Below, one piece after another: positions 30,763 to 64,000 of a stretch of DNA of 64,000 nt. The notes beneath the pieces were generated by a model. It was not told where the DNA came from. It did not search any database and saw only the letters and a program-made list of their open reading frames with translations. The stretch comes from Promethearchaeota archaeon (GTDB taxonomy: Archaea; Asgardarchaeota; Lokiarchaeia; Sigyniarchaeales; SOKP01), in the NCBI GenBank assembly GCA_019058365.1, contig JAHPZE010000010.1:32001-96000 (forward strand), written 5' to 3'. Every line of letters begins with the position of its first letter. Within the stretch, counting starts at the first letter, position 1. The position numbers and the translations under genes are program-made.

Positions 30763-31332
30763 ATGATCAATAAAATTAAAACTAAAGCTGAAGTAGGCAA
30801 ATTGGATATTGACTTATTACAATTTCTAATCAATTCTGCCAAAAATGAGCTTGGGGGTAAATGCTTTCTAATTGTATATAAATACAACGAGATTTATTTA
30901 GGGCTAATAAATAATAATACGATTATGAAAGGTTACTTAGAACTGAATAGAGTAAATGTTAAAAATGAACTAAATATCAATCATATTTTAGATCTAAGAA
31001 TGTTTTGCGAGAAAGGAGAACTTCATTTATGGAAATATAATGATACTCTCCAATGGAGATTAAGAAAAGATGGGGAGGGGGAAGATTGTGATATATATGA
31101 AGAGGATCATTATATTTGGGGGACTAAAATCTCAGATGAAGATGAATTTTCAATTATTGAAGAATGTCGAGGTATGCAATTAACATTTCCCTTTTCTTTA
31201 AAAGAGCAACCTTTACCTTTAAAATATAAAGTCCGAAATTATATAAAATATGATGGTGACGGATTAATAAATTTTATTGATTCTCGCATTGTTCATTTTA
31301 TCAATAATAATGGAGGTGTCTTAAATTCCTAG
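30763..31332 (+). CDS. csx19: Type III-D Csx19
   Basis: LDLRMFCEKGELHLWK, YIWGT and VRNYI..DSR motifs; position in the operon. Confidence 0.88.
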   Translation: MINKIKTKAEVGKLDIDLLQFLINSAKNELGGKCFLIVYKYNEIYLGLINNNTIMKGYLELNRVNVKNELNINHILDLRMFCEKGELHLWKYNDTLQWRLRKDGEGEDCDIYEEDHYIWGTKISDEDEFSIIEECRGMQLTFPFSLKEQPLPLKYKVRNYIKYDGDGLINFIDSRIVHFINNNGGVLNS

Positions 31333-33214
31333 ATATACAAAATCTAATGAAACATTTGTAAATCCTTACTTTTTCATACCATTGGAGAATAAATGTATAA
31401 AAACTTATAATTTAGAAGATATAATGAAAGATAAAGGATTATTAACAGGATGGATAGAATGTGAATTAGAAACCAAAACACCAATATTTATCCCAAATAC
31501 GACTAATAATGATATATTCCATTTTAGAACTAAAAATAATGAACAAGTACAGAGTTACGAATTCTACTCCTACGAGGATCTAAGTGAGGAGAACAATCCC
31601 GATCGAACACCCTCAAAAAAACCTATTATCCCTGGCAGTGAAATAAGAGGGATGATTCGCACTTCTTTTGAAGCTGTAACTAATTCTTGTTTATCAACGA
31701 TAAATGAGGGGCAAATTCTTTATAGAAGAGTTAGTATTCCAGCCGAGCCAGGGCGTATTGAAAGAAAAGATGATAATGCTTGGCAAATACAACCTTGTAA
31801 TAAATATAAACTTAATATAAGGCGATTTCAACAAGAGATAAATGGATTTGTTGAAGGAGAGCCGATATCTTTTACTGCCAATCAAAAATTATATATTACA
31901 AAAATAAATAATCAAGGAACTGGTATAAAAGGTTACTTCCATCAAGGAGAGAAAATGGATAGAAAAAATAATGAATCTGTATTTGTGCCTAATCTCGAAA
32001 AGACAGCCTTTCCAATTAGTTCAGATGCTTTAAAAAATTATTTAGAAAACTTAAAATTATATAGTGATAAAAACGTGAACCTTCATTATAAAGATAAAGA
32101 GCATACTGGATATAACAAAATAACCGCTAAAAAAGAGAATGATTTAGATGGAGCATTGATATATTATAAAGAATACAAAATACAATCAAATAATAAGACT
32201 TTCAGAAAATTATATTTATGTCCTGCGCAGATTGGACGCGAAATTTTTTATATGACTCTGAGTAAAGTCATTGGTACATATACACCTTGTAATTTGATGA
32301 AGGAATTATGTCAAGCTTGTTTATTATTTGGTTTTACCAGTTCAGAAGATCAATTAGCATCAAGGATTCGTTTTTGTGATGCATTTCCAATTAAAGATAT
32401 AACAAAGGAGGATTATTTTACTCAAGGAATCATAGATGAATTAGCTTCACCTAAATTAACAGCGGCAGAATTCTACCTTAAGAAGTCTAGCGCAAAAGAT
32501 AATTCCGAAGTTCATCTTTGGAATTATGATTACGCAGGGGGTTGGAAAAAAGAAAACAAGAAATATACAAATGAATTTATTACAATGCCTAATTATAAAG
32601 CAATGATTAAAGGGAGAAAATTTTATTGGCATCAAAAAAACAAAAAAATCAATCTGAAAGGTAAAGAAAGTGAAACTATTACAATAAGAAACATTGGTAT
32701 TCGTCCTTTAAAACAAAATATTAAATTCTCATTTAAAGTATATTTCAATCATATACGAGAAGAAGAACTTAAAAAATTAATTTGGGTTTTAGAAATAGGA
32801 AATTATCAAAATAATGCCCACAAAATTGGAATGGGGAAATCCCTCGGGCTTGGGAGTGTTAGGATTAATGTTAAAGAGATAAAAACTCGTCGTATTAAAA
32901 TAAAAAATAAAACGATTAATTATAAAATAAAAAATGATCTCAATGTTCTAAATGAAGTAAGGACATCAGAACATCCAAATGAATTTTTAGGATGTGAGAG
33001 CAATGTTTTGAATGCTTTTATAAGAATGACTAATTTCGAAGACTCCCCTCAAAATGTAAGTTATCCCATAAATATAGGGGAAGAATTTCATTATAAATGG
33101 TTTGTAGTTAATAAGAACTTTTTACCAGGTAGTACTGGGATGAGACCTATAATTAACCAAAGTTTACCTGAGAATGTAAATAATCCAAATTTATATAAAT
33201 ACCTAAGAAGATAA
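31325..33214 (+). CDS. cas7: Cas7 with large insertion (type III-D RAMP); probable ATT start at 31325
   Basis: FVNPYFFIPL lies upstream of the ORF-track TTG; also IPGSEIRGMIR, CQACLLFG, GRKFYWH and KIGMGKSLGLG motifs. A GGAGGTG SD sits 6 nt before the ATT. Confidence 0.9.
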   Translation: MPRYTKSNETFVNPYFFIPLENKCIKTYNLEDIMKDKGLLTGWIECELETKTPIFIPNTTNNDIFHFRTKNNEQVQSYEFYSYEDLSEENNPDRTPSKKPIIPGSEIRGMIRTSFEAVTNSCLSTINEGQILYRRVSIPAEPGRIERKDDNAWQIQPCNKYKLNIRRFQQEINGFVEGEPISFTANQKLYITKINNQGTGIKGYFHQGEKMDRKNNESVFVPNLEKTAFPISSDALKNYLENLKLYSDKNVNLHYKDKEHTGYNKITAKKENDLDGALIYYKEYKIQSNNKTFRKLYLCPAQIGREIFYMTLSKVIGTYTPCNLMKELCQACLLFGFTSSEDQLASRIRFCDAFPIKDITKEDYFTQGIIDELASPKLTAAEFYLKKSSAKDNSEVHLWNYDYAGGWKKENKKYTNEFITMPNYKAMIKGRKFYWHQKNKKINLKGKESETITIRNIGIRPLKQNIKFSFKVYFNHIREEELKKLIWVLEIGNYQNNAHKIGMGKSLGLGSVRINVKEIKTRRIKIKNKTINYKIKNDLNVLNEVRTSEHPNEFLGCESNVLNAFIRMTNFEDSPQNVSYPINIGEEFHYKWFVVNKNFLPGSTGMRPIINQSLPENVNNPNLYKYLRR

Positions 33215-33277
33215 TATTATTTTCAAATTTTTTAAATTCTTGTAATCGTAGAACTAATTAATAATTGAAGAATCATT

Positions 33278-34294
33278 ATGGTACAGAAAGATAACGTTTT
33301 GTTAATATCCTTAGGTCATTCTCCAGCGGTTATCCCAGAGACGCTCGATGCGTTATTAAAAAAAGATATTTATATCAAAAGAACATATATAGTCACGACT
33401 TCAGATGAGATGATACTAAATGATTGTATTCCTCTTATTGAGAAAGATTTTGCGAAGCATTATAAATATAAGAAGAATATGGAATTATTTGCTTATAATT
33501 GTATTTTAACTAAGAATGATATTTATACGGAAGAGGACAATCTTGAAATAATGATTAATGTCGCAAAGATTTTCAAAAAGGAAAAGCAAAATAATATCTA
33601 TATAAGTATAGCAGGTGGTCGGAAAACAATGTCAGCAGCAATGTCGCTTTTAGCGCAGATATATAGTGCAAGAGCTATTACACACGTGCTTGTATCACCT
33701 GAAATTGAAAGCGAGGGTTCAATATTTAAATTAAAGGAACATTCTCCAAAAGAAATCGAAGAGATTTTCCACCCGGATCCTGAAAATATGCGGTTAATCT
33801 TTTTTCCGGTTATAGGTATATCTTGGATGCTTTCAGATATGATAAATGCATTGCTTGAGAGTAAGGATAAAGTAATTCGAACTGATGTGACAGATATACT
33901 TAGATTAAATGGGTTGTTGGATGAAAATAATAAGCCAACTTTTTTGGGGCTGCAACTTCTTAAATTGTTAGACGATATAGAGAAATTTCCAGATATTTCT
34001 TTTAAGGAACCTAATCTGAAATTTAAGAAGGATGAGGGATCACATGCCCCTAGAGATTATAATAAATTTGTAGCACGCTTAGCAAATATCCCTTTTATTG
34101 AATCAATTATCGGTGTAAAATTCATTAATTCACCAAAAACACAGATAAATAATTGTTTATCCAATGGAACTATTAACTGTCAATATTCTGATGGGGATAA
34201 AGCATATGTTTTAAAAATTCTTACAACTGCAACAACCAGCGGCGAAGTAGAATTAGTAAAGAATTATCTTAAAAAATTTTTTGTAAAGATCTAG
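33278..34294 (+). CDS. CARF (NE0113/Crn1-like) + wHTH + DUF2103-like C-terminal domain; candidate cOA-activated effector
   Basis: LGHSPAVIPETL, IVTT and ISIAGGRKTMS motifs; PTFLG wing; C-terminal H..LA..PFI..GTI...SDG...LTTA. Confidence 0.8.
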   Translation: MVQKDNVLLISLGHSPAVIPETLDALLKKDIYIKRTYIVTTSDEMILNDCIPLIEKDFAKHYKYKKNMELFAYNCILTKNDIYTEEDNLEIMINVAKIFKKEKQNNIYISIAGGRKTMSAAMSLLAQIYSARAITHVLVSPEIESEGSIFKLKEHSPKEIEEIFHPDPENMRLIFFPVIGISWMLSDMINALLESKDKVIRTDVTDILRLNGLLDENNKPTFLGLQLLKLLDDIEKFPDISFKEPNLKFKKDEGSHAPRDYNKFVARLANIPFIESIIGVKFINSPKTQINNCLSNGTINCQYSDGDKAYVLKILTTATTSGEVELVKNYLKKFFVKI

Positions 34295-34312
34295 ATTAGA
34301 GCATTACATTTT

Positions 34313-35887
34313 CAGTATTTAGTTGCTAAAAATTATTAAAGAATAAATATATAAAGTATAAAAGGAAATAAAAATATAAAAAACCATTGAACTGTATTCT
34401 TTTCTATGCAGAAATGATTCTAGATTTTGGTTTTAAAATAATAGTTTGTGCTATATTGCTTATTCGATATTTCACCATAAAGTTTATTAGAAAGAAGTGA
34501 TAATATTTATTTATACCACTAAATAAACTATTTCCTATCTCAGTTAAGAGATTGGGAATTAAATCACTTCTCTCTAATGAATATATGCTGTCCTTTTTTA
34601 AAAGGTTTTGTGATGCAATCACATCTCGCATGCGGATATTCAAAAGGGCTAGAAATGCGAGATATGAGGTTATTGACTTTCTTGAAGTGTTTTTTCTCTC
34701 GAAAATTATTGGCAGATCCATTTATGACACCAGTAAGATGCTCAACAAGTACCTTTTAAGTAAGAAGAAAGGAAAACCAAAAATTTTTACGGACAGACGA
34801 AAAAAACGATCTATTCCACACCAAACTGGGGGCAATAAATATTTACGTAAGATTGGATTGAATAAAGCTCGCAATATTTTGCGAGAATGCCTGGATACCC
34901 AATTAAAGGAAGCTTTGGATCAAGGGTTGATGTCTAATAGAGTAAACGTTTTAATCAATTTTATAGAGCATCCTTACTATGGAATGAGAGAGGATAAAAT
35001 GATTAAAGGCACAAATCGGCAGAAGAGGACAATAAGATGCGCCATTACCTAGAATTTTCGATTTTATCGCGAGAAATCCATCTTTACGCAGGATTGGAGC
35101 AGGTCGAAACAGGTAGATCTAAGATTCCAATCATAATTAAGTTTTTTGATTATTTGCTTGATTTAAGATTCGAGTTGAATTATGTGTTGATGGATCGAGA
35201 ATTCTATCGGACCGAACTCTTGGATGAAATAAAGGGAATGGGCGGCAATGTTTTGATATCTGCTAAGGTATATAAGAAAGTTAAGAAAATCATTGAGGAA
35301 TATTTGAATGGAGAAGGTAATCGGGTAAGAATTTACACGATTTCAAGCAATTCTGCTGCAAAACACCGATTTTTCCAGAATGTTTACTTGATAATAAAGG
35401 CAAAACGAGGGTTTTCCCTTCAGGGTATCAAGAAAGACTACCAGAGCGGAAGAATACCGCTAAAGGTTGGTCGGACTAGATTATTCACAATAATGATTAC
35501 TTAGAAGCCAAAAGGAAAGACATGTTCTTGGGTGTCTCGAACATCATTCTTTTACAAACGAAGATGGCTAATTGAAACTGGTTTTTCCGACTTAAATCGA
35601 ATTAATCGTCGATGGAAGTCAAATCATGATAATTTGAGATATTTAGATATATTAGCTCGAACGCTTATTCATAATTCGTGGAAAATGAACAGAAAGCTAA
35701 TCAGAATGAGATCAAGAAAAGGAGGAAAAATAAACAAATGGATGCTAGCTAAAAACCAAGATTACCTAAGGCAAACTTTTCTTTCAATAGAGAAAAAATC
35801 ATGGGGGGGTAATCTGATATCTTCAGAATAATGTCGACACGCCGATCATGAGAAAATAAATAAAAAAAAATAAATACTTAAATACTA
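34313..35887 (+). mobile_element. Decayed ISH3-like insertion sequence (transposase split into 34552-35052, 35037-35504 and 35532-35831)
   Basis: HPYYG, LMDREFY and YKRRWLIETGF motifs, broken by a frameshift and a stop. The ends are tentative: CAGTATTTAG at 34313 with a degenerate match near 35878-35887. Confidence 0.75.
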
Positions 35888-35928
35888 TATATAAAAAGAC
35901 TTGAAAATAAGACAGAAGATGAGGTTTC

Positions 35929-36702
35929 ATGAAAAATATATTTCTAATTTCTTCATTAGGGCTTTCTCCTGGGGTGATAACGGGCACGATTGATGCCCTT
36001 CAATATGGAGAATTAGGGGAATCGTATAATCCAAAGTTTATAGCTATCATAACGACGGATAATGAGTTAACGAGTTTATCTTTAGAGGTGGTGGAATATA
36101 ATATTCAAAAGCATAACCCGCACATCCAAATTTGCCCTTATATTATAAAAGGACTTTCTGACATAAATATCATTGAGGATAACAATAAAGTTATGCGAGA
36201 GTTCGTTGCAGCCATAAAAGGGGGTGAGTTAATGAAAAAAAGAGACGCTGTAGAAGAAATTCATGTGAATATAGCTGGAGGGCGGAAGATTATATCGGGA
36301 CTTTTTGCTACCTTATCGAATATATTTCCCGTGGATATGGTTTATCATTTAATAACGACTCCTGAAATTGAGCAGCAGGGATTTATTAAGAATTTTTTAA
36401 GTTCGGATAATTCTATAAATATAGAGAAGTTAGATTCGGAAGCCAGTAAAGGGATTTTTCATCCGAAAACGAAAAATCTGCCCACATTCTCGGTGGAAAT
36501 TCCTATATTACATTCGATAAATTTTGATGATCTATTGGAGCTTTCATCCCAAATACTGAGTAATAAGGCAATATCTGACCATTATCTCATAAATTTAATG
36601 TTGTGACAAGGAATTTTAATAAGACAGGCGCATAATAAATATAAGGTCACACAGAAGGGGAGGGTATTATTTGATCTTTTCATTAACTATAAGAAGGTGT
36701 AA
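35929..36702 (+). pseudogene. CARF (NE0113/Csx14/Crn1-like) + wHTH protein with an in-frame TGA at 36604-36606
   Basis: SLGLSPGVITG, IITT and VNIAGGRK motifs. The frame continues after the TGA as QGILIRQAHNKYKVTQKGRVLFDLFINYKKV*. Confidence 0.75.
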
Positions 36703-36785
36703 GATTTTCGTAAGCTGAGAGCAAATTTTATTGAAGATTGTTACGCTATTTTTTATTGAATTCTAAATTCTAAATGAATAATCGA

Positions 36786-37757
36786 TTAAGTTACTTTTTG
36801 TACATTGAAGGATGTAATTAGATCGCCTTGATATAAAATGTGCTTATTTTTAGCCCAATTTTTCCATTCAGAAAAGCTATCAACATCAATAGTGAGTTCA
36901 AGTTCTTTAATGATTTGGAAGCCATTTCCTTTGTAGACTTTTTCTTTATCCCTTAAATCAAAATTGATTAAATTAGCGGATTGCAGTTTTTTCAGATACT
37001 GATGATTAATTTTATAATGGTCTAAAATTTTTAGGATTTCCTTTTTGTTAATAATTAGGCGATTCAAAAAGAGATGTTCGATCTCTCGTAATATCTCGTG
37101 TTCTAACCCGATCCAGAAAAAGGGCAGTTCCTGCCAGTTTTTAGGGGGAATGGGAATTAGAGGATTCTCAAAATCTGGTTTTGCAATATCAGGATGAATT
37201 CTAGAGATCATTTCTTGAAAAATATAAATGAACTTCGTTCCTATTCCCGTTAGGCATGAAGATAAAAATAATGATAAATTAATCTGGTTTGCTCCACCAA
37301 CCAAGTTTATCCATACTTCTTTTCTATTTAAAGCTTTTATTGTAGTATAAACTTTTTCATAGCAGTCCTTAAAATCGTTATGATTTACAGCAACAAAAAA
37401 GATATCCTCAATTTTATTAAAAAGATCAGTAAGATCACATTTATTTATTAAAAAATTTAAAGATTTCAAAATTATATGAGGTACTTTTTTTTGTTTATTT
37501 ATTCTAAGATTGAACCAATCATCTTGTAAGTCATCGAAAGGAGGTATAATCCCTTCAATTACTTCTTTTGATGTAAAAAAGATGATACATTGAGGAGAAC
37601 CTTTATCACTTTCATCAACTTCTCCTGAATGTTTAAAAAAATCAAGAGCCTCAGGATTTGCCTTTCTTGCCATTTTAAGCATGAGATAAATGTAATGAAG
37701 AGGGACAGTTGCAGAACCGGGGCTCCTTCCTACTCCTGATAGATAGTAAATACCCAT
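36786..37757 (-). CDS. Divergent CARF-domain protein with C-terminal wHTH-like region
   Basis: LSGVGRSPG, IFFTSKE and VWINLVGGANQ CARF-like motifs; AGGTGA SD. Confidence 0.7.
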   Translation of the reverse strand: MGIYYLSGVGRSPGSATVPLHYIYLMLKMARKANPEALDFFKHSGEVDESDKGSPQCIIFFTSKEVIEGIIPPFDDLQDDWFNLRINKQKKVPHIILKSLNFLINKCDLTDLFNKIEDIFFVAVNHNDFKDCYEKVYTTIKALNRKEVWINLVGGANQINLSLFLSSCLTGIGTKFIYIFQEMISRIHPDIAKPDFENPLIPIPPKNWQELPFFWIGLEHEILREIEHLFLNRLIINKKEILKILDHYKINHQYLKKLQSANLINFDLRDKEKVYKGNGFQIIKELELTIDVDSFSEWKNWAKNKHILYQGDLITSFNVQKVT

Positions 37758-37982
37758 TCAATATTCACCTTTATCTTAAATTTATAAATTTAAATGGGAT
37801 CAAATGGATTTAAATGTTTTTGTCTGTTAATTATGTTCTTATCTTTGCAGTCAGGTCATTCAGAATTATAGAAAAATTTTCAAAGTATAATAAGGTCTTG
37901 GGAGTTTTTAAATCTGAAATTCTTAAAGGAATAACCAAGTATCAATAATCATAATAGTAAAAAATAAACTTGATCTTAAACA

Positions 37983-41122: not shown

Positions 41123-41243
41123 GCAAGAATTAAGAATACACGAGAGAATTAATCAATAACGAAATTAATAGGACTCTAAAAATCTATTAAATATTTTTTT
41201 AAACATGGTAGAAAGTGATATAGATATGGCAATCTTAGATAGA

Positions 41244-46494: not shown

Positions 46495-47055
46495 CTAAGA
46501 ATAATTTTCAATTTTCAGTATGGATCTCGTTAAAAATTCAAAAATCTGTTCAATATTTTCTCCAGTTTTAGAGGAACATTCGAAGTTTTTAACGATTTTA
46601 TATTTTTTTGAGATTTTCTTAGCGTATTTTCTGGATATTACTCTTTCTTTATGGAGATCTAATTTGCCACCAACCATTAAGAGAGGAATTTTCTTTTTAT
46701 CATTAGATAAATTATCTTTGAATAATGTTAACCATTTTTCTACGTTTTTTATACTGGAATAATTAGTGATATCATACATAAAAATACCTCCTGATATACC
46801 CTTTATAAAAATTGGGAAAATAAATTGAAATTGAGGATCACTTCTAAGATTCCAAATTTGAAGTATAATTTTAGAAGAATTTATTGTTAAATTTTTAAGC
46901 GCAATATCTATGCATACTGGTGGCTTTACTTCCTTTTTTTGAATACCTGCTTGGGTTAATGAAGTTTTTCCAACATTTCTTTCGCCAAAAATACATATTT
47001 TGAAGATTGAATCCTTGTTTATTTCTTGCACCTCCAATTTTTTAAAAGTTTCCAA
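46495..47055 (-). CDS. Rab-like small GTPase with degenerate G3
   Basis: G1 GERNVGKTS, G4 GKLD and G5 ECSSKTG; G3 reads WNLRS instead of WDxxG. Confidence 0.88.
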   Translation of the reverse strand: METFKKLEVQEINKDSIFKICIFGERNVGKTSLTQAGIQKKEVKPPVCIDIALKNLTINSSKIILQIWNLRSDPQFQFIFPIFIKGISGGIFMYDITNYSSIKNVEKWLTLFKDNLSNDKKKIPLLMVGGKLDLHKERVISRKYAKKISKKYKIVKNFECSSKTGENIEQIFEFLTRSILKIENYS

Positions 47056-47404
47056 GTTTTCTTTTAACTATAGAATCTATTAATCACTTCTATTGGCATT
47101 TTTTTACTTAACTTAAAATTAAAGATAAATCCTTATACCTTATTTTATTATATCAGGGATATTTATAGGTGATTCTATAGAAGATCCTATATAACAATAA
47201 AATAGTCAAACATTTTGTATTTAAATCTTTACTTCTTTATTTTTTCTTTAAATTATTTTAATATTATTGGTGATTTGCTTCATTTTCTATAATAGAAATA
47301 CTAAAGTGATTAATTTAATAAAAGATAAATATCATAATATTATCTTATTTATAGTAAGATTAAAAGCATAAAAATAGAATTTTAATTTAAGGAGTGTGAA
47401 ATAA

Positions 47405-47947
47405 ATGTCAGAAGCAACAATTAATGAGGAATTTACTACTAAACTGAAAAATGAGCAATTTCTCTATTTTGCAGATAATTCTTATTTAGGAATTGCGTTA
47501 ATCCAGAGAGGACATCTCATATATTCTAATACAAAATTTGGAGAAATCTTTGGCTATTCTCAAGAAGAGATCTCAAAATGGAAAAAGAGAGAATTCTATA
47601 ACATTGTGCATCCTGAAGATTTAAAACATTTAGTAGAGACATTTAAGATTGAAAATGATAAAAGAACTATAACAATACGATTTAGAGGTATAAGGAAAGA
47701 TAAAAGCATAATTAATATAGAAAATTATAATTGTCAAATTAAATATAATAATAAGTTTGCAGTTTTATCCAGTTATATTCCATTAGAAGAAACCTTTGAA
47801 GAAGAACCCTATACTCCTAAAATGATAAAGATAAAGAGAGAAAAAATAATTATATTGAAATATCATTCAGATATAGAGAAACTCCTAAAAGATAGTAATC
47901 TGAAATTTGAAATTTATACCCATTCTTCATATCGAGAAGAAAATTAA
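47405..47947 (+). CDS. Stand-alone PAS-domain protein (copy 1)
   Basis: N..F.EIFGYS.EE..VHPEDL PAS motif; conserved SYREE C-terminus. Confidence 0.88.
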   Translation: MSEATINEEFTTKLKNEQFLYFADNSYLGIALIQRGHLIYSNTKFGEIFGYSQEEISKWKKREFYNIVHPEDLKHLVETFKIENDKRTITIRFRGIRKDKSIINIENYNCQIKYNNKFAVLSSYIPLEETFEEEPYTPKMIKIKREKIIILKYHSDIEKLLKDSNLKFEIYTHSSYREEN

Positions 47948-48141
47948 TGTTCATTTTCTTGGATTTCTTCATTTTCTTTCGAGATTTCTTCAAAATGAAC
48001 ATTATATCTCTTTTCAGGATCAAGAACCTTATGCTTAATTAACGTTCTTGGGATATATACGATTGTATCTGGTCCCATTGAGGCTAATTTTATATTCTCT
48101 AAGGTGAAGATTCTCTTCTCTCTATTCATACTTAATCGCAT
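47944..48141 (-). CDS. Small AbrB/SpoVT-like DNA-binding protein (copy 1)
   Basis: KLASMGPDTIVYIPR.LI..LDP...YNVHFEEI; three paralogs in the window. Confidence 0.7.
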   Translation of the reverse strand: MRLSMNREKRIFTLENIKLASMGPDTIVYIPRTLIKHKVLDPEKRYNVHFEEISKENEEIQENEH

Positions 48142-49423
48142 TAAATTTCACTTTAAACATTTTTTATTATATTTTATTGAGCTTTAAATATTTCCCTATA
48201 GAGGTTAATATTTTTACAAAACGACTTTAGTCATAAATTCGCATAGTATCATTCTTAATGTATTGATTATAATTATTCCTTTATATCTTTATCAAAATCT
48301 TTTATTTTTTTCTTAATTAAATTAGTAAATTAAAAATAATGTTATTATCTCCATTAAAAAACGATGCTTTAGTTCCTATGATGGTTATGTTTATATATTT
48401 TCGAAAGAATGGAATGATAATAAATTGTAATCAGCAATATCGAGTCTTTGAAAATCTTCTCTTACCCCTAACGAACAATCTATTCAATTTCCTAATAAAT
48501 TATGTCTTTTTCCCATATATTATAGTTATAATCTTGTTCTTGGTGTTCCTCCCAACTTAATAGACACTCACTCTAATTTCCTTCAAATATATGAATCCAT
48601 ATAAGAATGTTATGATAGAGGGTTATCGTAACAAAAAATTTATATCATTTTATCAAGAAAAGAAGAAGAATAAAGAGTGAAGTTGTAATGGTGATTTTCA
48701 TATTAAGGAACAGTGTAATAAACTTCTTTCATTATATCAGAAAATAATGGTTATTTTACAAGCCAAATCTTAATAATTCTATAATTTCATTACTATTTAA
48801 AGAAAAATTCTACTAAATATTGATAAAATCAGTCCTTTAAGATGGTAACATGCAAAGAGTTGCATAAGGATTTGCTTGACGGGACAATAATGACTATTAG
48901 TCGCATTCATAAGTATTTTGTGATTGTTGAAAATATCTATAAAAAGAAGAGGAATTATGAACCGAGAAATAGTTATCGCTGGTGAATCAAAGAAAGAGAA
49001 AAAGACAGAGAAAAAAATGAATAACTGGAGAAGAATTAAGGAAGGAAACGATTATAGTTATAACATTAAATGAGAAAGAAATATTACAATTTTTATCAGA
49101 AATATTTGACAATCCTAAGTAAGCATTGTAATTATCGATTTTTATAGAGTTCTTTTGACATATTGCTTTAAAAAGATAACAAATTGCCGGTTAGGTAATA
49201 TTTTCTCTATCTTAAACCAATACATAATTTTTAAATTATAAGAATTCTCCAGATTTTATTCTTATAAATCACTAATTTTTTCTGAAGTGAAGTAAAATAA
49301 ATTTGCAGATTCAATTAATAGAATTAAAATTATGAAGAATTATAAGTTAAAATCGGTTTTAAGTAAATTTGAATTAATATATGGAGGAATTTACAGGTTA
49401 AAATGAGAATAATAAGAAAGGGA

Positions 49424-52798: not shown

Positions 52799-52813
52799 AT
52801 CTTGATTTTTAAA

Positions 52814-54533: not shown

Positions 54534-54716
54534 CTAATTTATATTTATAAAAGAATTTCTCCATTTTTCTCTATCCACCACTTCTTCTTCATTTACAATT
54601 TGTACAGGATGACCGGAATGTGATGAATCAAATATTTTCAACTGATTTTGATTGATATAATCATTTTCAATGATAGGTACATATTCATGACACTTGAAAC
54701 ATACTTTTAGTTTTAT
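54534..54716 (-). CDS. Small CxxC..HxxH zinc-finger protein (not in ORF track; probable ATA start)
   Basis: IKLKVCFKCHEYVP..FDSSHSGHPVQIVNEEEV; paralog of 45427-45675; AGGACGTG SD-like site 6 nt upstream. Confidence 0.65.
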   Translation of the reverse strand: MKLKVCFKCHEYVPIIENDYINQNQLKIFDSSHSGHPVQIVNEEEVVDREKWRNSFININ

Positions 54717-54800
54717 TTAATACACGTCCTTTAGATTTAATTACTAATTTGATTTTGTACTAATTTTTAATTGGCCAGTATTAACAATTAAATTATAGTT

Positions 54801-55337
54801 CTAAATATAACCTCCAGAGTCCATCATTATTCTCGATAAAAATTTAAAAATTGTTTCAACATTTTCTCCAGTTTTAGAAGAACATTCAAAATGTTTAATG
54901 AATTTCAATTTTCTTGCTATTATCTTTGCTTTTCTTTGAGAAATTATTCTCTGTTCTTGGAGATCCATCTTTCCTCCAACTAGCAATAATGGAATTTTCT
55001 TTTCATCCTTGAATAAACTTTGTTTAAATATGGTAATCCAATTCTTTATATTCATTATACTTGAATAATTAGTGATATCATACATCAAAATACCACCAGA
55101 TGCGCCTCCAGTAAAAGAAGGGAAAAGAAACTTAAATTGAGGGTCACTCCTAAAAATCCAAATTTGAAGAGTAATTTTAACTGAATTTATGGTTAACTCT
55201 TTAATTGCAATATCTATACAGGTAGGTGGTTTTGTGTCTTTATTGAATATCTTATGAATCGCTTTTTGAATGAATGAGGTTTTTCCAACATTATTATCTC
55301 CAAAAAGACATATTTTGAAAATTAGATCTCTGCTAAT
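54801..55337 (-). CDS. Rab-like small GTPase with degenerate G3 (copy 2; probable ATT start at 55337)
   Basis: The frame stays open upstream of the ORF-track start: FKICLFGDNNVGKTS..QIWIFRSDPQF..GGKMDL..ECSSKTG. AGGTG SD. Confidence 0.82.
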   Translation of the reverse strand: MSRDLIFKICLFGDNNVGKTSFIQKAIHKIFNKDTKPPTCIDIAIKELTINSVKITLQIWIFRSDPQFKFLFPSFTGGASGGILMYDITNYSSIMNIKNWITIFKQSLFKDEKKIPLLLVGGKMDLQEQRIISQRKAKIIARKLKFIKHFECSSKTGENVETIFKFLSRIMMDSGGYI

Positions 55338-55636
55338 TTATAACACCTTATTAAGTTAAATTCTTTCTATATCTTAATCAAAAAGAACAGGAGAATTTAA
55401 TTTTAAACTATTACCCTTGCTTTCCCTTTATTATCACTTCAAAGTGATATTATAGAATATTCTATAAGGAACCCTATATAAAAATATAAAAAGAGATAGA
55501 TTTAAATTTTTGTTTTTGTTCGTAAAGTGAGAACAACTTATAATTCTACAAAAATATATAAAACCACTTAAAAAATTATATTATTAGAGAAAATTTTAGA
55601 CAAAATATCGCGTAAGAATATTTCAGAGTATAAACC

Positions 55637-56176
55637 ATGTCAGAAATCAAAGAAAATGAAGATTTTAGTACGAAATTAAAGGATGAGCAGTTTCTATATT
55701 TTGCAGATAATTCTAATCTGGGAATTCTGATAATTCAACAAGGCTATATAAAATATTATAATCACAAATTTCCAGAAAGTTTTGGCTATTCTCCAGAAGA
55801 GATCTCGCAATGGAAAAAGAGAGAATTTTTCAAAATAATCCATCCTGACGATCTAAATCAATTATTACAAAATCTTAATATTGAGGATGATAAGATGGTA
55901 TCTTTTCGATTTAGAGCAATAACTAAATCACAGAGAATTGTTAACATAGAAGTTTATCTCTGTATAATACGATACAATAATGCAAGAGCCTATTTAATAA
56001 GCACTTCATCATTAGATGAAATCTCTACAGAAGAAGCATATCTTCCAAAAAAAATAACGATAAATAAAAAGACAAAAATTATATTAGATTATCATTCAAA
56101 TGTAGTTAAACTGTTAGATGACAATAATATAGCTTTTGAAATCATTAGAAATTGCTCATATCGAGAAGAACAATAA
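55637..56176 (+). CDS. Stand-alone PAS-domain protein (copy 2)
   Basis: Paralog of 47405-47947. Confidence 0.88.
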   Translation: MSEIKENEDFSTKLKDEQFLYFADNSNLGILIIQQGYIKYYNHKFPESFGYSPEEISQWKKREFFKIIHPDDLNQLLQNLNIEDDKMVSFRFRAITKSQRIVNIEVYLCIIRYNNARAYLISTSSLDEISTEEAYLPKKITINKKTKIILDYHSNVVKLLDDNNIAFEIIRNCSYREEQ

Positions 56177-56177
56177 G

Positions 56178-56360
56178 TTAATTTTCTGACCTCTTATTTG
56201 AGACTTCTTCGAAATGTACATTGTATATTTTAGTAAGATCAAGAACTTTATGCTTAATTAATGCTCTAGGGATATATACGATTGTATCTGGTCCCATTGA
56301 AGATAATTTTACATTTTCTAATGTAAAGATTTTCTTCTCTTTTCTCATAAGGTATCGCAT
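56178..56360 (-). CDS. Small AbrB/SpoVT-like protein (copy 2)
   Basis: Paralog of 47944-48141. Confidence 0.7.
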   Translation of the reverse strand: MRYLMRKEKKIFTLENVKLSSMGPDTIVYIPRALIKHKVLDLTKIYNVHFEEVSNKRSEN

Positions 56361-56730
56361 TAAATTTGACTTTAAATATTTTACATTATATTTTATTGAA
56401 CTTTAAATATTTGTATTAAAATAAAAATTTATAGAGTTCCCTATAGAATGAACTTTTATTTCCAATAGTATTTATTCCTATCTCAGATCCATCACACCAT
56501 AGTATATGTTTTCTGATTTAGTGAAGTATTAAATAGTATTTTTCAATTTTTAATTATGGAACTAATAATTTGACAAAAGCATCAATATAGGTGTAGAATT
56601 ATATTAATAGAAATTGAATTTCCTAAAAAAATTTTCTATGGCAACAATCGAAAAAATAGAGAAAGAAAACAAGACGGATATTATTATTATATAAAAAAAA
56701 TAGTTTTATTTTTCATTTATTCTACCTCTT

Positions 56731-56990: not shown

Positions 56991-57036
56991 AAATTCACTT
57001 TTCTTTTTTGTCAATTTCCTTCTCCTTTTTTTTATT

Positions 57037-57246
57037 TTACTTTATTTTTATTGAATCTGAATTCTTACCCATAATATCAAGAATTAAAGTAGAAATAGGG
57101 ATTTGTGAAATCTGTTTTATGATAAACCGAAGTACCTCAGAATTAGATTTTATCCCTGAAGATTTTTTGATTTCTGAAAAGGGATGATATAGCGGGTCTT
57201 CTTGAGTAAGGGTAAGTCTTAGTTCAATATTTTCGTTAATAGTCAT
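57037..57246 (-). CDS. RHH-like small regulator
   Basis: Strand-helix-helix pattern IELRLTL..PLY..F..IKK..GIKSNSEVLR; GAGGT SD. Confidence 0.7.
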   Translation of the reverse strand: MTINENIELRLTLTQEDPLYHPFSEIKKSSGIKSNSEVLRFIIKQISQIPISTLILDIMGKNSDSIKIK

Positions 57247-57397
57247 ATTTTTACCTCTTTTATGCTAATTAATTTTTTTTTATCCAATTTTGTCATAAAA
57301 AAGATATTTTTTTATATATATAAATATTCGTGATAATTTAGGATAAATCTGGAGTAATTTACAAAAAGTTATATTTTTCTCAAAATATAATATCTTT

Positions 57398-57595
57398 ATG
57401 GATAAACACAATGAAACTGAAGAAGAAATAGGTATTAGACTAAATCTTTCAAAAGAAGTAGATCAACCATTATATGATTATTTCCAACAAATAAAGAAAA
57501 ATCTAGGCCTAAAAACCAATACAGAAGTAGCGAGGATATGTATAAAAAAAGCGTATGAATACTGGTTTAGTAAAGGGGATACAGAAATAATTTAA
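57398..57595 (+). CDS. RHH-like small regulator, divergent paralog of 57037-57246
   Basis: IGIRLNL..PLY..F..IKK..GLKTNTEVAR. Confidence 0.7.
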   Translation: MDKHNETEEEIGIRLNLSKEVDQPLYDYFQQIKKNLGLKTNTEVARICIKKAYEYWFSKGDTEII

Positions 57596-57812
57596 TTTTA
57601 TTTAATTTTTTCCAATTTTTTTTAATTCCTCTTGGATTTCATTATCAGCCATAATAACAGTATTAATTTGTGATTTCAAATATCTAATACCTATTACTAT
57701 TTAAATAATTTTTCTATAATACCGACATTTTTAAAATCTCTTTTTTTACTCTCAATCACCTCACCCTTTCTCTAGAGCTCAGAATTGTTTTATTTTAAAA
57801 AGTCTTATCTTC

Positions 57813-58433
57813 TTATTTTACAAGCTCTTTTAACTCAAAATAGATTTCATTGATTTTTTCTATATCCTCTGTGAGTTCCTCGTTATTGACGATATTTCTA
57901 ATTCCTGATAAACCAATTTGATACTTACTCAATATGGTTATCAGATAGTTCATAGGATCATCAAATCGGCATTCAATTTTTGCTAATTCAGATAGATTAA
58001 AGCTTCTCAAATTAGATATATGAAGCCTAATTATATCTACCAAATATCTTTCTTCTGTCCTTAGATCCCACTTTCCAAGAATACCAAATAATCGCTTATA
58101 TTTACCACGTTCATTAAATTCCTTTAATACTCCTCTCAGCTCATAAATTTCTGATATTAAGGACATAATTCTCTCAATTATAATTCTTAAGTGTTCATTT
58201 CTTGCTTTCTTCTCTTTAATGTATTGAATATACAATATAATAAAAGGACTTAAAATTATAATAAATTGGATTGTTTCAGTTAAATTAACAATGTTATGAC
58301 CCCAATTCAAAATAATGAATATCCCAATGATCATTCCGATAAAAATAAATAATCCTAATGAATAAAAAACAAACCATCTTTTTAATTTTTTAAATATTAC
58401 ACGATAATTCTTTCTTTCGTTATTTATAACCAT
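57813..58433 (-). CDS. Hypothetical membrane protein (2 N-terminal TM helices)
   Basis: Hydrophobicity pattern. Confidence 0.65.
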   Translation of the reverse strand: MVINNERKNYRVIFKKLKRWFVFYSLGLFIFIGMIIGIFIILNWGHNIVNLTETIQFIIILSPFIILYIQYIKEKKARNEHLRIIIERIMSLISEIYELRGVLKEFNERGKYKRLFGILGKWDLRTEERYLVDIIRLHISNLRSFNLSELAKIECRFDDPMNYLITILSKYQIGLSGIRNIVNNEELTEDIEKINEIYFELKELVK

Positions 58434-58541
58434 AGTTTAATCATCATTCTTATATTGATTTTAGCTCTCTATTATTTAACCAATTATTAGTATTATCTCT
58501 AAATTTAAATGACTTTTTTACTTCTACTTGAAAAAAAAAAA

Positions 58542-58787
58542 TTATAGTTTTTGCGTTTCATAATAAAATGAAACTAAGAAATATCCTCGTTTTTCTGTGT
58601 AAGTTGCCTTCTCCATTCCACATTCTTTTTTGATCGGATCATTCTCAGGAAGGGGAATTATTAGAGGGGGAATATAGGTATGTTGAATAAATCTAATCTT
58701 TTTTTCCTTGTTTTCTAAAAGCCAATTATTAATTTTTAATTGAATATCATCCTCTAATCTTAACGTTAAGATTGTGTAACTCAACAT
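58542..58787 (-). CDS. Hypothetical protein
   Basis: The ATG lies 1 bp after the upstream stop codon. Confidence 0.55.
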   Translation of the reverse strand: MLSYTILTLRLEDDIQLKINNWLLENKEKKIRFIQHTYIPPLIIPLPENDPIKKECGMEKATYTEKRGYFLVSFYYETQKL

Positions 58788-58788
58788 T

Positions 58789-59271
58789 TTAATCAACTTT
58801 AATAAAGTAGACTTCTTGGATGAATTCTTCTATTTTTCTGATATCATCTCTTCTATTGAAGTGAAATTTCCAATCATCCCCATTAATCATGATATATCCG
58901 TATTGTTTTAGACCTTTTACAAGTAAGACAATCCCTATAATAATTAGAATAGGGCCTATCAGATATACCAGAGTAGATAAATTAACACTCAATGCAATCC
59001 CTACTGTTAAGAAGATTGCACCCAAAATTAAGAATAATTTATTTCTAGCGTGCCACGCATTTTCGATATATGAGATTTTAGTAAGAGGTATATCTCGATA
59101 GATTCGGTCATACCCTTTCAACTTTTTAAAATGAAATATTCTTTTATTTGTAATCCCTAAAATATTCTGTTTAACTTTTTTCTGAGTAACAGAGCTAATT
59201 TCCCCCTTCGGTCCGATTTCCCATTTGAATAGAATCGATTCTTGATTATTTAAATAATTCTCTATTGACAT
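58789..59271 (-). CDS. Prokaryotic PH-like domain protein with TM hairpin
   Basis: LGITNKRIF..RDIPLTKISYIE motif and two TM helices; GAGGT SD before ATG 59271. Confidence 0.7.
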   Translation of the reverse strand: MSIENYLNNQESILFKWEIGPKGEISSVTQKKVKQNILGITNKRIFHFKKLKGYDRIYRDIPLTKISYIENAWHARNKLFLILGAIFLTVGIALSVNLSTLVYLIGPILIIIGIVLLVKGLKQYGYIMINGDDWKFHFNRRDDIRKIEEFIQEVYFIKVD

Positions 59272-59484
59272 ATTTATACCTCTTTTTATTTTTTGGTTAC
59301 CAAATTTAAGTTTGATTTTCAATCTCTTTATAGAGTTCTCTATAGAAGGTAGTATAAATAAGAAGAATATTCCGTCAAAATATAAATCTTTACTTTTATA
59401 AAAAGATTAAAATTAGATAGCAAATTATTATGTTCGGGAATAATGTAGACAAAAAATACTACAAATCAGAAATGAGTGTAAGAA

Positions 59485-60024
59485 ATGTCAAAAGCAATAA
59501 TAAATGAAGAATTTTCGACTAAACTAAGGAATGAAACATTACTTCATTTTGCCGAGAATTCAACTATAGGGGTTTTAATAATTCAGAGAGGATATTTACA
59601 ATATTTTAACCAAAAATTTACAGAGATTTTTGGGTATACTAAAAAAGATATTCTACAATGGAAAAAAAGAGAATTCTATAAAATTGTTCATCCTGAAGAT
59701 TTACCATACTTAATAGAATTCTTTAAGATTGAAACAGATAAAAAAACAGTATCAGTACGATTTAGAGGGGTAAAAAAAGATAACCATATAATCGATATAG
59801 AGAATTATATGTGTTATATTAAATATAACAATAAAACAGCATGCTTATCAAGCTATATTTCTTTAGAAGAGTCCTTTGATGAAATCTATGTTCCTAAATT
59901 GAGCAAAAGAAAAATAGAAAAGAAAATCATATTAGATTATCATCCAGACATAGTTAAATTTTTAGGAGATAATACTATAAAATTCGAAATTATCAAATGT
60001 AGCTCATTTCGAGAAGAATATTAA
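59485..60024 (+). CDS. Stand-alone PAS-domain protein (copy 3)
   Basis: Paralog of copies 1 and 2. Confidence 0.88.
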   Translation: MSKAIINEEFSTKLRNETLLHFAENSTIGVLIIQRGYLQYFNQKFTEIFGYTKKDILQWKKREFYKIVHPEDLPYLIEFFKIETDKKTVSVRFRGVKKDNHIIDIENYMCYIKYNNKTACLSSYISLEESFDEIYVPKLSKRKIEKKIILDYHPDIVKFLGDNTIKFEIIKCSSFREEY

Positions 60025-60209
60025 CCCTCTTTTTCATGATCCTCTCCAGATATCTCTTCAAAATGAACATTATATTTTTTTTCAGGATCAAGAATCTTAT
60101 GCTTAATTAATGCACGGGGAATATAGACAATAGTATCTGGACCCATAGAAGCTAATTTTACATTTTCTAACGTAAAAATATTCCTCTCTTTATTCATATT
60201 CTGTTCCAT
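60021..60209 (-). CDS. Small AbrB/SpoVT-like protein (copy 3)
   Basis: Paralog of copies 1 and 2. Confidence 0.7.
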   Translation of the reverse strand: MEQNMNKERNIFTLENVKLASMGPDTIVYIPRALIKHKILDPEKKYNVHFEEISGEDHEKEG

Positions 60210-60329
60210 ATTGGATCACTTTAAATAATTTTTATTATATTTTATAGAACTTTAAATATATTTTTTCAGATAGAGTTCTATAGGAGGCTCTATAGGGGAC
60301 TTTAAACAATAATGTTAATGGTGTAAAGA

Positions 60330-60488
60330 ATTAAGATTGAAATTGAAATACCTGATAAAGTATATAAATTCTTCAATGTTCGAGCTATCTTTAATAACAG
60401 AAAAATAAATGAAGAAATATCACAGTTTTTAGAAAAAGAATATGAAATCTTAAAAGATTTGTCATTTGATGAAGCTATAGCTTCTTAA
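60330..60488 (+). CDS. Arc/RHH-like small protein (not in ORF track; probable ATT start)
   Basis: IKIEIEIPDKVYKFFNVRAIFNNRKINEEISQFL; GGTG 6 nt upstream. Confidence 0.55.
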   Translation: MKIEIEIPDKVYKFFNVRAIFNNRKINEEISQFLEKEYEILKDLSFDEAIAS

Positions 60489-60909
60489 TTTTGTTTTTTA
60501 TCTCTTTAGAATACTAAAAATCATAAGCTTTTTCAATAATAAATTTAATCACTTCTGCTGATTTAATTGGAGAAAGAAAATCTTGTATCTCCTTAAGTTT
60601 TTTATAAATGGGGTTCCAAGATATCTGGTCATGATGCTGTTTATGGATAACTACAATCTGAAAATTAAGTTAATAGATTGCAGGCTAAATTTACTCTATC
60701 TAATTTTAAATTTGAAATGTAAAGCTCACTATTGCTCTTCTCCATATTTCAACTAAAAGTATGATATATCCTTTTAAAATTCTTAGGTTGTGATTTAAGA
60801 ATAATTTTTCAAAATAATGAAAGTTTAAAAACTAGGATATTATTTTCTTTATTAGACAAAAATGTAATAATGATTTTTATATTTTAATTTGAAAAAGTAG
60901 TTATTAAGG

Positions 60910-62381
60910 GTGAAAACAGAGCTGAAATCTGAGAATTTAATCTCAAAATGGAAGAAAGTATTACTTATTAAACCAAATTACAAAAATAGTGATGCCTACA
61001 TGTATTATATTAAGATGAACTTTCCTCCACTAAATTTAGCATACATCGCTAGTTATTTACTAGATCTAAACATTGATGTTGAAATTCTTGATGCGAAAGT
61101 AAACAATTTTAATTGTTGGGAATTAAAGAGAAAAATTATGAAATTTAAACCAGACTTGATTGGAATATCTGTATATCTCTCTGCAGTGATTAATGAAAGC
61201 TTTAAAATAGCTAAGATTATAAAACAAATTGATCCGAAAATAACGGTTGTATTTGGTGGTAGGCATCCTACATTTGAGTCTGAGCAAATTCTTAAAAGAA
61301 ACGAAGTTGATATCATTGTAAGAGGGGAGGGAGAAATTACATTCAGAGAATTAATCACTAAAGGAAATCCTCAATGTATTGAAGGGATTTCTTATAGAGC
61401 AAATGGCATAATTGTACATAATCCAGATAGACAATTAATGAATTATTCAGACGTTAGGCTTCCTGCAAGATATCTTTTAAACGGTAATAAATATTGGATA
61501 TATACAGTGAGACTAGAAACTGTTGAATCTTCAAGAGGATGCCCTACTCATGTAAATTTTGTATTACACCGAATTTTTATAAGCGTAGTTGGAGACCACG
61601 ACCAGTTGAAAAAATTATTACGGAATTAAAAATGATCTCAAGAAATCGAAAAATTTCAGATATCTTTTTTGTTGATGATAATATGACTGCTAATACAAGA
61701 AGAGTTGAACATCTATGTGAAAAAATAATCGAATGTAAAAAGAAAAATGAAATAAGAGATTTTAAATTTTTTGCTCAAATTAGAGTAGATTCTGTGGTAA
61801 AATCTCCTCAAATGGTTAAAAAAATGGCTGAAGCCGGATTCTGGGTTGTATTGATTGGAATTGAGAGTATATTTGAAGAAACCTTAAAAGAAGTAAGAAA
61901 AAATATGAACTTTCAGGCTGTTTTAGATGCAATTAAAATTCTACATAGAAATGACATCATTGTTGTTGGAAATATGATCATTGGGGTAAATCTACATGAA
62001 AAAGAAGAAGATGTCAAAAAAGAAATAAAATATATGTCAAAGACAGATATCGATATATTAACTTTTAGTATATTAACTCCTTTTCCAGGAACTATCACAA
62101 TTCGGGAATTAGAAGAAAAAAAACTCATTATAAGTAAAAATTGGTCTAAATATACAATAATTAAACCTGTAATTAAAACATACAAGTTGAGCCCTAAAAA
62201 GTTGAGTGAACTTCTTTTATATTCTTTTCAGAAAATAAAATATATCAATAATCAAAAAGGATTGTTGTTAAGAATAATAAAGAAGCGTGGAATTCTATTT
62301 ATATTAAATCCCGTTCGAATCGTATTATTACTGAAAGCTTTCATTAAGATGAGAATTTTTTTCAAAGCTCACAGAAAATAA
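60910..62381 (+). pseudogene. B12-binding radical SAM protein with a 1-nt frameshift at ~61542
   Basis: PPLNLAYIAS, GGRHPT and GEGE motifs, then SRGCP|YSCKFC split between frames, followed by FVDDN, IGIES and TPFPGT. Confidence 0.88.
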
Positions 62382-62600
62382 TGAAGGAAATACTATAAAG
62401 AAAATCGCTTTTATATTTAAAATTAGGATAAAACTCTTCATTTCTAAATTTAGTAAATACTAAAAATAAATATACACAAGAGTCTCCATTATCTAAAAGG
62501 TGAATTCAATTTTTAAAAAAAGAGAGGAGAAAAGAAATTTGAGTTTTTAAGTTAAGATTAGGGAGAGATTAAATTCAATAGAGTCTAATAGAGAGCGAAA

Positions 62601-62996
62601 GTGTCAAAAATAGGATTAAGTTTAAGTATGATTGGTGGCATTCTGTTCTTTATTTTAACTTATTTTTTTGCTAGAGATTATTATTTCATGTGGCCGTTGG
62701 GTGGGGTTTTTGTACTAGGGTTTCTTTTTTATCTATTTATTAATGTGGGTGCTATAGTTGGAGCAATTTTAGGATTTATAGGGAAAAGAATTGGTTATTA
62801 TTTATGTTTACTGATTGGAATCAGTTTTCCTCTGTTTGGGTTGTATTTATCTGGTCCATATTTTTTTATTTATTTTTTTGAAGGTTTTATTGATACATTT
62901 TACATTTATATCCCATGGTCGATATTATTTATTGGTGGTATTACTGGTTTTATAGAATTGCGATTGGAACTTAGAAAAAATAACTTAATTCTTTGA
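62601..62996 (+). CDS. Small 4-TM membrane protein
   Basis: Gly-rich hydrophobic helices. Confidence 0.65.
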   Translation: MSKIGLSLSMIGGILFFILTYFFARDYYFMWPLGGVFVLGFLFYLFINVGAIVGAILGFIGKRIGYYLCLLIGISFPLFGLYLSGPYFFIYFFEGFIDTFYIYIPWSILFIGGITGFIELRLELRKNNLIL

Positions 62997-63224
62997 AAAA
63001 AAATAATTTTGAGTTCTACTTGCTGGTCCTAGTGTTTGAATATATTTTTCCAAACAAAATGGAAAATAATTTCTCTACAAGCAAAAAATTAGATAATTTC
63101 AATTCCATAAAAGATTCTTTAGACTCTAAAGTAATCTTACAATTCTTTTATAATAGTTTAAACCTTCTTAGATTTTTAAGAAAAATTAATGGATTAAATT
63201 AGATTTCTTTATTAAGAAAAAATA

Positions 63225-63830
63225 TTAAGAAAGAACATCATAAATTCCTTTTCGGGGTCTCGAAATTATTATCATCAATTGTAAAAGTGCTTCTAAGTAT
63301 CTCTTGTCTCTTATTATCTGTGGGTCTTTATAATCTCCTTCAAGGTTTAAAATATCATTTAATTGTTTTAATGCGATGGTAATATGAGTAAAACTATATA
63401 AGTTTCTATTATATTTATGGATAAATTCTTTCAATATATTTAAAGCAAATTCTACCTTTAAAGATTCTTTTGGAGTCAAAAGCTCCATTGGGGCAATAAT
63501 CTCAAAATATTTCCCCATTTTATTAATAATTTTATCATTTAGAACTTCTCTATGTTTATCTATAATATGGTGTAATTTATCGAGTCTATCAGTAAATAAT
63601 CTGGAAGTTTCTCGAGTTAAATCCATAGAAATTGACATCCCTATTCTAGCTCCAGTTTTTAATTGACTTATATTCCATAACATAGTAAATAAAATATCTA
63701 AAGAATTTTCAAATTTTTCTACAATTATCTCATTTTTATGCCCATTTCTCACTTCTTTAGCGTATTTTGACCCTTTTCTTGAAGATAATTTCAAAAACAA
63801 TTGAAATAATTCCTCATCGTCAGTTATAAT
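63225..63830 (-). CDS. Hypothetical helical protein (probable ATT start at 63830); intact paralog of 1869-2474
   Basis: QLKTGARIGMS.SMDLTRETS is shared with the other copy; AGGGG SD-like site. Confidence 0.7.
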   Translation of the reverse strand: MITDDEELFQLFLKLSSRKGSKYAKEVRNGHKNEIIVEKFENSLDILFTMLWNISQLKTGARIGMSISMDLTRETSRLFTDRLDKLHHIIDKHREVLNDKIINKMGKYFEIIAPMELLTPKESLKVEFALNILKEFIHKYNRNLYSFTHITIALKQLNDILNLEGDYKDPQIIRDKRYLEALLQLMIIISRPRKGIYDVLS

Positions 63831-64000
63831 TTTTCCCCTTCGAGTCTTTAATTATTGAAACTTAACAGCAATAATGGAAAAGATAATAGGTGAGATTGGG
63901 TTTTTAAGGATGGCTCACCAAATGTTTTGACAATAATTTAAGAATTTCTCATTATTATATAATTATCTATTTTCCATTGAGTTATGTACTCAAAGAACAA

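Follow-up and report, generated by a model that had tools for sequence, protein, structure and literature searches.

Probable use of ATT, ATA and other near-cognate start codons by a minority of Lokiarchaeia genes

NCBI translation table 11 formally allows ATT, ATC, ATA and CTG as start codons, and starts at ATT, ATA or ATC (together called ATH here) are used by animal mitochondria, whose mRNAs are leaderless and whose tRNA system differs, in contrast to the Lokiarchaeia considered below. In model bacteria, the canonical codons ATG, GTG and TTG make up ~99.95% of annotated starts. The closest described cases are infC, which encodes IF3 and is involved in its autoregulation, and pcnB of Escherichia coli, both of which start at AUU; AUA, AUC, AUU or CUG give 1 to 2% of the output of AUG in that bacterium (PMC4705826; bioRxiv 10.1101/063800). 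The accessible parts of archaeal reviews list AUG, GUG and UUG starts only (PMC7531240, PMC6237735, PMC4705826). Here we analyzed a 64,000-nt stretch of a Lokiarchaeia genome (the window; coordinates are window positions unless a contig is named), in which several genes had been predicted to begin at ATT or ATA behind good Shine-Dalgarno (SD) sites. Our analyses indicate, with a probability of roughly 85%, that in Lokiarchaeia the translation of a minority of genes starts at near-cognate codons, through relaxed start-codon checking that would be offset by SD strength. The machinery and the SD-guided choice of start would be shared with archaeal GUG and UUG initiation, but ATH, CTG and ACG at the frequency found here are absent from the accessible parts of those reviews. 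The literature searched, mostly open-access papers, contained no account of Asgard archaea using ATH starts; near-cognate starts are known for single bacterial genes, and their lineage-wide use appears to be new, as far as we found no report of it.

The host genome is a Lokiarchaeia (Promethearchaeota) metagenome-assembled genome (MAG) of 4.74 Mb, with ~29% GC and 6.6% contamination, and the window is part of its contig C24. Its 16S rRNA is archaeal, and the 3′ end carries the usual anti-SD GAUCACCUCCU. The host initiation factor aIF1 is 85 to 90% identical to proteins named Promethearchaeota or Lokiarchaeota, and the cluster of one aIF1 homologue contains Ca. Lokiarchaeum sp. GC14_75. In the counts below, family and class are groups of the genome collection, taken as Lokiarchaeia.

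The candidate codons of all six window genes named in the original prediction were found at the expected places and strands (Table 1), and three of these cases were fully borne out. In a gene for a Cas7 protein with an insertion (cas7-insertion), in the gene for small GTPase 2 and in a Zn-finger gene, an in-frame TAA is followed immediately by the ATH codon, which is separated from the SD by 6 nt, and the first canonical codon comes 19, 83 and 25 codons farther downstream, respectively. The ATT of cas7-insertion at 31325, preceded by GGAGGTG-N6, aligns with the ATG of two of three bacterial homologues (40 to 44% identical), the third having ATG two codons upstream. Its closest relatives are bacterial, and no homologue was found in 300 other Asgard genomes (E ≤ 1e-30). 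As the Ras match of GTPase 2 starts at residue 8, its P-loop requires the start at ATT 55337, as had been proposed. The aligned column of this GTPase family contains ATT in 6 of 14 members, ATG in 5, ATA in 2 and ACG in 1, with similar SDs upstream. At the start of the Zn-finger gene, ATA 54716, 21 close homologues have ATA (13), ATT (1), ATG (5), TTG (1) or GTG (1), mostly right after a stop codon. Across the window genes, ATG, TTG, GTG, ATT, ATA or ACG thus occupies the start column of the homologues.

The genome-wide count that the original prediction had called for was performed on ~4,040 nonredundant open reading frames (ORFs) called by coding score, with SD matches sought near each 5′ coding edge. 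It yielded 104 in-frame ATH codons in the SD window where 36.6 were expected (P = 5.5e-24). With SD matches of at least 5 nt and spacers of 3 to 12 nt, 646 genes have canonical starts (ATG 490, TTG 120, GTG 36). The ATH test set was composed of 189 genes without a canonical codon at SD distance, upstream or within ten codons, with spacers of 5 to 9 nt. In this set ATT was observed 57 times (17.8 expected), ATA 37 times (13.9), ATC 13 times (4.2) and CTG 9 times (≤2.3), and AAA, AAT, TTT, TAT and GAA were not enriched behind SDs. ATT, ATA, ATC and CTG peak in frame only, 6 to 7 nt behind the SD, at the same spacing as ATG and more narrowly. Pairing occurs mostly through the GGTGA part of the SD; among genes with 6-nt SDs that have no canonical codon, 46 of 57 have a near-cognate one. 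The ATH excess corresponds to 9.5 to 12% of SD-led genes, i.e., roughly 80 to 120 genes, or 2 to 3% of all genes. Routine initiation at AUU and AUA in this lineage, as put forward initially, thus holds as lineage-wide use at that frequency, and extends to ATC and CTG, which are also enriched, and to ACG, which occurs. Near-cognate use ranks ATT over ATA, followed by ATC and CTG, with ACG rare and ATG still dominant.

The same test revealed an ATH excess of 6 to 10% in Ca. Harpocratesius repetitus (sister family, 800 kb), of ~7% in another genus and of 2 to 3% in a pool of loci from other Asgard archaea, in which core genes are overrepresented. Raw counts of ATH versus canonical starts were 105 versus 646 in the host genome, 2 versus 93 in Clostridium pSOL1 (31% GC; Fisher P = 2.5e-4), 1 versus 42 in Methanocaldococcus plasmids (29% GC) and 0 versus 26 in a Thermococcus plasmid (38% GC), the low-GC control plasmids thus having ~2% ATH. 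Three control genes, two of pSOL1 and one of an M. jannaschii plasmid, have ATT or ATA behind a good SD and no near canonical codon, and may be overlooked starts. When metagenomes were scanned for ribosomal operons from outside the Asgard archaea, one usable locus was obtained, of 54% GC. In an SD-independent orthologue test using ATG-started relatives as queries, ~5 of 220 genes were near-cognate, which is a rough lower bound only because genes with ATH in both genomes drop out.

The dominant codons ATT, ATA and ATC all specify Ile, and cas7-insertion overlaps its upstream gene by 8 nt, as might be expected if these frames were entered by readthrough, by a frameshift from the upstream gene or by initiation with an isoleucine tRNA. 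Such routes appear improbable, as most of the genes are separated from their upstream neighbor and have an SD of their own. Since CTG and ACG occupy the same column, what these codons share is a single mismatch to ATG rather than Ile.

Near-cognate starts are also found in core genes of the host. The uS14 gene (host contig C34:9211-9357, +) starts at ATA and contains no ATG, GTG or TTG anywhere in its 49-codon frame, so that callers limited to these codons would miss it altogether. The uS12 and eL21 genes start at ATA, with the first canonical codon at positions 72 and 52, respectively, and those of L7Ae and uL15 start at ATT, with the first canonical codon at positions 34 and 11. DnaG and a GPN GTPase have ATT starts, and a proteasome alpha subunit has an ATC start. 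All of these except the last, as well as aIF1, are single-copy genes in the host. In the spc/S10 operon, near-cognate starts were identified in 33 of 413 gene copies of the family, whereas none were seen among 222 copies from other Asgard classes, 9 being unclear. Every genus member examined has ATA or ATT as its uS14 start; a sister genus has ATG, GTG or TTG there, and both kinds occur within two sister pairs. On a 35-genome tree, the uS14 ATH pattern requires 5 changes, at least 3 of which are forced by well-supported branches. Exchange between ATG and ATH in one column was observed directly for uS14, uS8, uL15, the Zn-finger gene, the GTPases and cas7. The condition that would have contradicted the original prediction, namely, orthologues all starting with ATG and core genes never with ATH, was looked for and not found. 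Two further host genes with ATT starts are that of a class I tRNA synthetase resembling IleRS (C37:46120, −), which thus starts at an Ile codon, and one of six actin-family genes (C34:313023, −), 84% identical to another copy. As the first canonical codon of the latter lies 48 codons in, annotations probably contain a truncated form of this eukaryotic-signature protein.

Could the missing ATG codons result from sequencing or assembly errors, or be restored at the RNA level by editing? The contamination of the MAG and the fact that no RNA reads cover a start, the one RNA run stopping short of that of aIF1, leave some room for this reading. It is nevertheless highly improbable, because dozens of genomes that were assembled independently have these codons too, with uS14 and other core genes as examples; as for editing, A-to-I conversion could make AUA AUG-like but presumably not AUU, AUC, CUG or ACG.

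The other window genes fared less uniformly. For a pair of paralogous, uncharacterized 200-aa genes, the predicted ATH start was right and its position was not: rather than at ATT 63830 and ATA 2474, the conserved column lies one codon later, at ATA 63827 and ATA 2471. The column at 63830 is variable (ATT, CAT, TTT, AAT, AAA, AGT or ATA), and a TTG ten codons downstream of ATA 63827 is not conserved. In paralogue B, the in-frame TGA (−) replaces an AGA of paralogue A, with the downstream half still 60 to 70% alike; paralogue B is probably broken, a pseudogene. The TGA may denote a recent pseudogene or readthrough. The 52-aa ORF is a weak case. Its ATT at 60330 and the TAA boundary are present as described, but its annotation as an RHH gene found no match in a Pfam search, its SD match is 4 nt only, and its only three homologues have longer N termini, one of them as part of a larger fusion protein. 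Good support is available for five of the six genes. A probable seventh case, absent from the original prediction, is GTPase 1, whose ATA (47022) sits in the same aligned column as the GTPase 2 start; this start is less forced because of an in-frame TTG 11 codons upstream.

Table 1. Candidate near-cognate starts and associated features in the window
Feature	Coordinates	Strand	Remarks
SD GGAGGTG of cas7-insertion gene	31312..31318	+	7-nt match to 16S anti-SD; duplex energy −13.3 kcal/mol
RAMP (cas7 with insertion), 629 codons, ATT start after in-frame TAA	31325..33214	+	Pfam RAMPs
Small Ras-like GTPase 2, ATT start after TAA	54801..55337	−	SD AAGGTG 55349-55344; Pfam Ras from residue 8
Small GTPase 1, GTPase 2 paralogue, probable ATA start 47022	46495..47022	−	SD GGAGGTG 47035-47029, energy −13.0 kcal/mol
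60-aa CxxC (Zn-finger) protein, ATA start after TAA	54534..54716	−	ATA in 13 of 21 close homologues
Uncharacterized 200-aa gene, paralogue A, start ATA 63827	63225..63827	−	ATA/ATC in 14/14 copies, 12 genomes
Paralogue B, start ATA 2471	1869..2471	−	Interrupted by in-frame TGA 2193-2195
52-aa ORF, candidate ATT start, weak case	60330..60488	+	Second codon after TAA
Candidate CTG-started gene	60922..61629	+	SD scan alone; called GTG 60910 falls within its SD

Elsewhere in the window, a module made of a 180-aa gene and a small opposite ORF is present in three copies (46495-48147, 54534-56402 and 59485-60488), twice beside a small GTPase, and one relative encodes a fusion of the 180-aa protein with a 52-aa ORF homologue. 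Two cas clusters, 4827-15860 (−) and 25386-37757, flank an apparent CRISPR array (about 17000-25000), seen as a repeated translated motif.

Duplicated modules, a cas7 of bacterial affinity and the internal TGA of paralogue B are features that a decaying island might show, and independent start-loss mutations in decaying genes had been named at the outset as the alternative. As a general account, this explanation is refuted, and we consider it scarcely tenable, because single-copy essential genes elsewhere in the genome need ATH, their orthologues in sister lineages keep it, frames are intact, the codons are conserved across genera, and the SDs are stronger, not eroded. Disrupted frames, eroded SDs and redundancy, which characterize pseudogenes, were not found, except in paralogue B; decay may hold for that gene or for the 52-aa ORF. 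The cases resemble infC and pcnB instead: an SD matching the 16S 3′ end is followed, at the distance suited to initiation, by an in-frame near-cognate codon, no canonical codon yields the conserved protein (uS14, aIF1, GTPase 2, Zn finger and cas7), and, the 52-aa ORF with its three longer homologues aside, the codon is conserved or exchanged with ATG among orthologues.

The strength of the SD varies with the class of the start. With starts set by alignment, not by SD, and pairing energies computed afterwards, the uS14 SDs have −8.3 kcal/mol for ATH (n = 20) versus −2.9 for ATG (n = 12). The corresponding values are −9.3 versus −5.5 kcal/mol for uS8, and mostly −9 to −10 versus about −6 kcal/mol for the Zn-finger gene, and four gene families agree in the direction of this difference. 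This suggests compensation toward normal output. Compensation of a weak start codon by a strong SD has been shown for GUG and UUG, and AUG-to-AUU switches were put at 1 in 61,358, based on annotations (Belinky et al. 2017, PMC5622118). The same trend thus extends to ATH in Lokiarchaeia, where, in contrast, several switches are seen within single genes.

Inspection of aIF1, also suggested with the original prediction, revealed that the host gene (on contig C35; 1474-1791, −, of the locus examined) itself has an ATT start, with the first canonical codon 86 codons on. No clear ATG start was found for aIF1 in any of 48 Lokiarchaeia genomes (two ambiguous). It is ATT, ATC or ATA in 38 genomes of the family, five of which have a GTG inside the SD as an alternative, and TTG or ATA in other Lokiarchaeia families, with one ambiguous ATG/TTG; one extra copy in the family has an ATG far upstream. 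Outside Lokiarchaeia, aIF1 starts at CTG or GTG in 14 Thorarchaeia, at CTG in two Wukong genomes, and at ATG in Odin, Atabey and several other families. The weak start is kept more strictly in aIF1 than elsewhere, as ribosomal-protein genes of the family are 85% ATG. Two aIF1 copies, each with an apparent ATH start, occur in some relatives. As anticipated, gene callers truncate or miss such genes: 52 of 120 aIF1 homologue calls are without the first CxxC near the N terminus, some of which may be contig-end fragments or divergent, and several NCBI aIF1 records already begin at ATT.

The aIF1 of the host order differs from other Asgard aIF1 at a few positions, and its basic loop and C-terminal motif are kept. 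The initiator tRNA appears standard, with a CAU anticodon and an intron after it (C35:107637, +, adjoining the aIF2-beta gene; mislabeled as Ser by ARAGORN). The host has two aIF1A paralogues (contigs C39 and C34), and ksgA, aIF1A and aIF2-beta start at ATG. No altered or lost fidelity component was found among initiator tRNA, aIF1, aIF1A, aIF2-beta and KsgA, the genes of which are all present. In other systems, non-AUG initiation increases when KsgA is lost (PMC7897474); such a loss was rejected as the cause because ksgA is present.

The proposed explanation builds on two known activities, SD pairing, which positions the start, and proofreading of the start codon by e/aIF1. Pairing, mostly through GGTGA, would fix the 30S subunit on the mRNA so that the codon 6 to 7 nt downstream falls in the P site, where the ordinary initiator tRNA (CAU) would pair with a near-cognate codon with one mismatch. 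The aIF1 check would pass such starts often enough to supply even ribosomal proteins, and starts would drift among ATG, GTG, TTG and ATH, the weaker codon being accompanied by a stronger SD. We infer initiation at ATH, the use of the initiator tRNA and the efficiency from sequence patterns. As ribosomal proteins are needed in stoichiometric amounts, ATH initiation in Lokiarchaeia is probably far more efficient than in E. coli, which would imply a relaxed checkpoint.

30S subunits of Sulfolobus solfataricus accept an AUU mRNA as long as aIF1 is absent, and bind only AUG when the factor is present (PMC4705826); rejection of AUU by this aIF1 makes an infC-like feedback plausible in Lokiarchaeia. 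By analogy, there is an even chance that aIF1 keeps its weak start because it thereby limits its own synthesis, setting the tolerance for all ATH genes. As ATH is common in the host genome, it is the invariance of this start that argues for autoregulation. As with E. coli infC, a fidelity factor would itself be weak-started behind an SD; unlike E. coli, with two confirmed genes, the host would use such starts in ~80 to 120 genes including those of ribosomal proteins, and the aIF1 fold is unrelated to that of IF3. eIF1 is autoregulated through a poor AUG context (Ivanov et al. 2010, cited in PMC6237735). That orthologous factor likewise has a conserved weak initiation site, which eukaryotes reach by scanning to a poor-context AUG, in contrast to a near-cognate codon behind an SD and a feedback that is a candidate only. 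Tentatively, therefore, a relaxed checkpoint with efficient AUU, AUA and AUC starts, its tolerance set by feedback through the weak start of aIF1, might represent in archaea what autoregulation of IF3 and of eIF1 represents in bacteria and eukaryotes.

A different reading is that ATH codons are deliberately weak regulatory starts rather than products of near-neutral drift, forming a regulon whose output rises when aIF1 falls. The aIF1 gene, switching among ATT, ATC, ATA and TTG and remaining non-ATG, would suit it, as would uS14, with ATH throughout the examined genus, and the Zn-finger and paralogue families, which keep ATA. However, for most genes ATG and ATH replace each other freely from one sister lineage to the next, the ATH gene set has no functional theme, and the stronger SDs point to compensation. 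We therefore deem it unlikely as a general account; for aIF1 alone, it is compatible with relaxed checking offset by SD strength.

Several points weigh against relaxed checking as the explanation. The ATH starts are predicted from nucleotide sequence, and no causal change was found among ksgA, aIF1A and aIF2-beta. The genome-wide test covers SD-led genes only, its controls are small plasmids rather than whole archaeal chromosomes, and an unconstrained expectation-maximization (EM) analysis over 61 codons was discarded after drifting within 14 rounds to typical second codons (GAA, GAT, TCA). The exact start is ambiguous where several Ile codons cluster, 20 of the 33 near-cognate ribosomal-protein cases are uS14, and P values from orthologues are overstated because the genomes are related.

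If the explanation is correct, 2 to 3% of Lokiarchaeia genes, including those of ribosomal proteins, actin, small GTPases and aIF1, would be truncated or missed by ATG/GTG/TTG callers, which would affect surveys of gene content and of eukaryotic signatures, and the accepted set of archaeal start codons would widen. Lokiarchaeia would offer a natural system for the evolution of e/aIF1 stringency before strict-AUG scanning in eukaryotes. Feedback through aIF1 would be an archaeal parallel in the phylum closest to eukaryotes, and archaeal aIF1 autoregulation would become testable, as candidates are present in the enrichment-culture lineage Ca. Harpocratesius repetitus.

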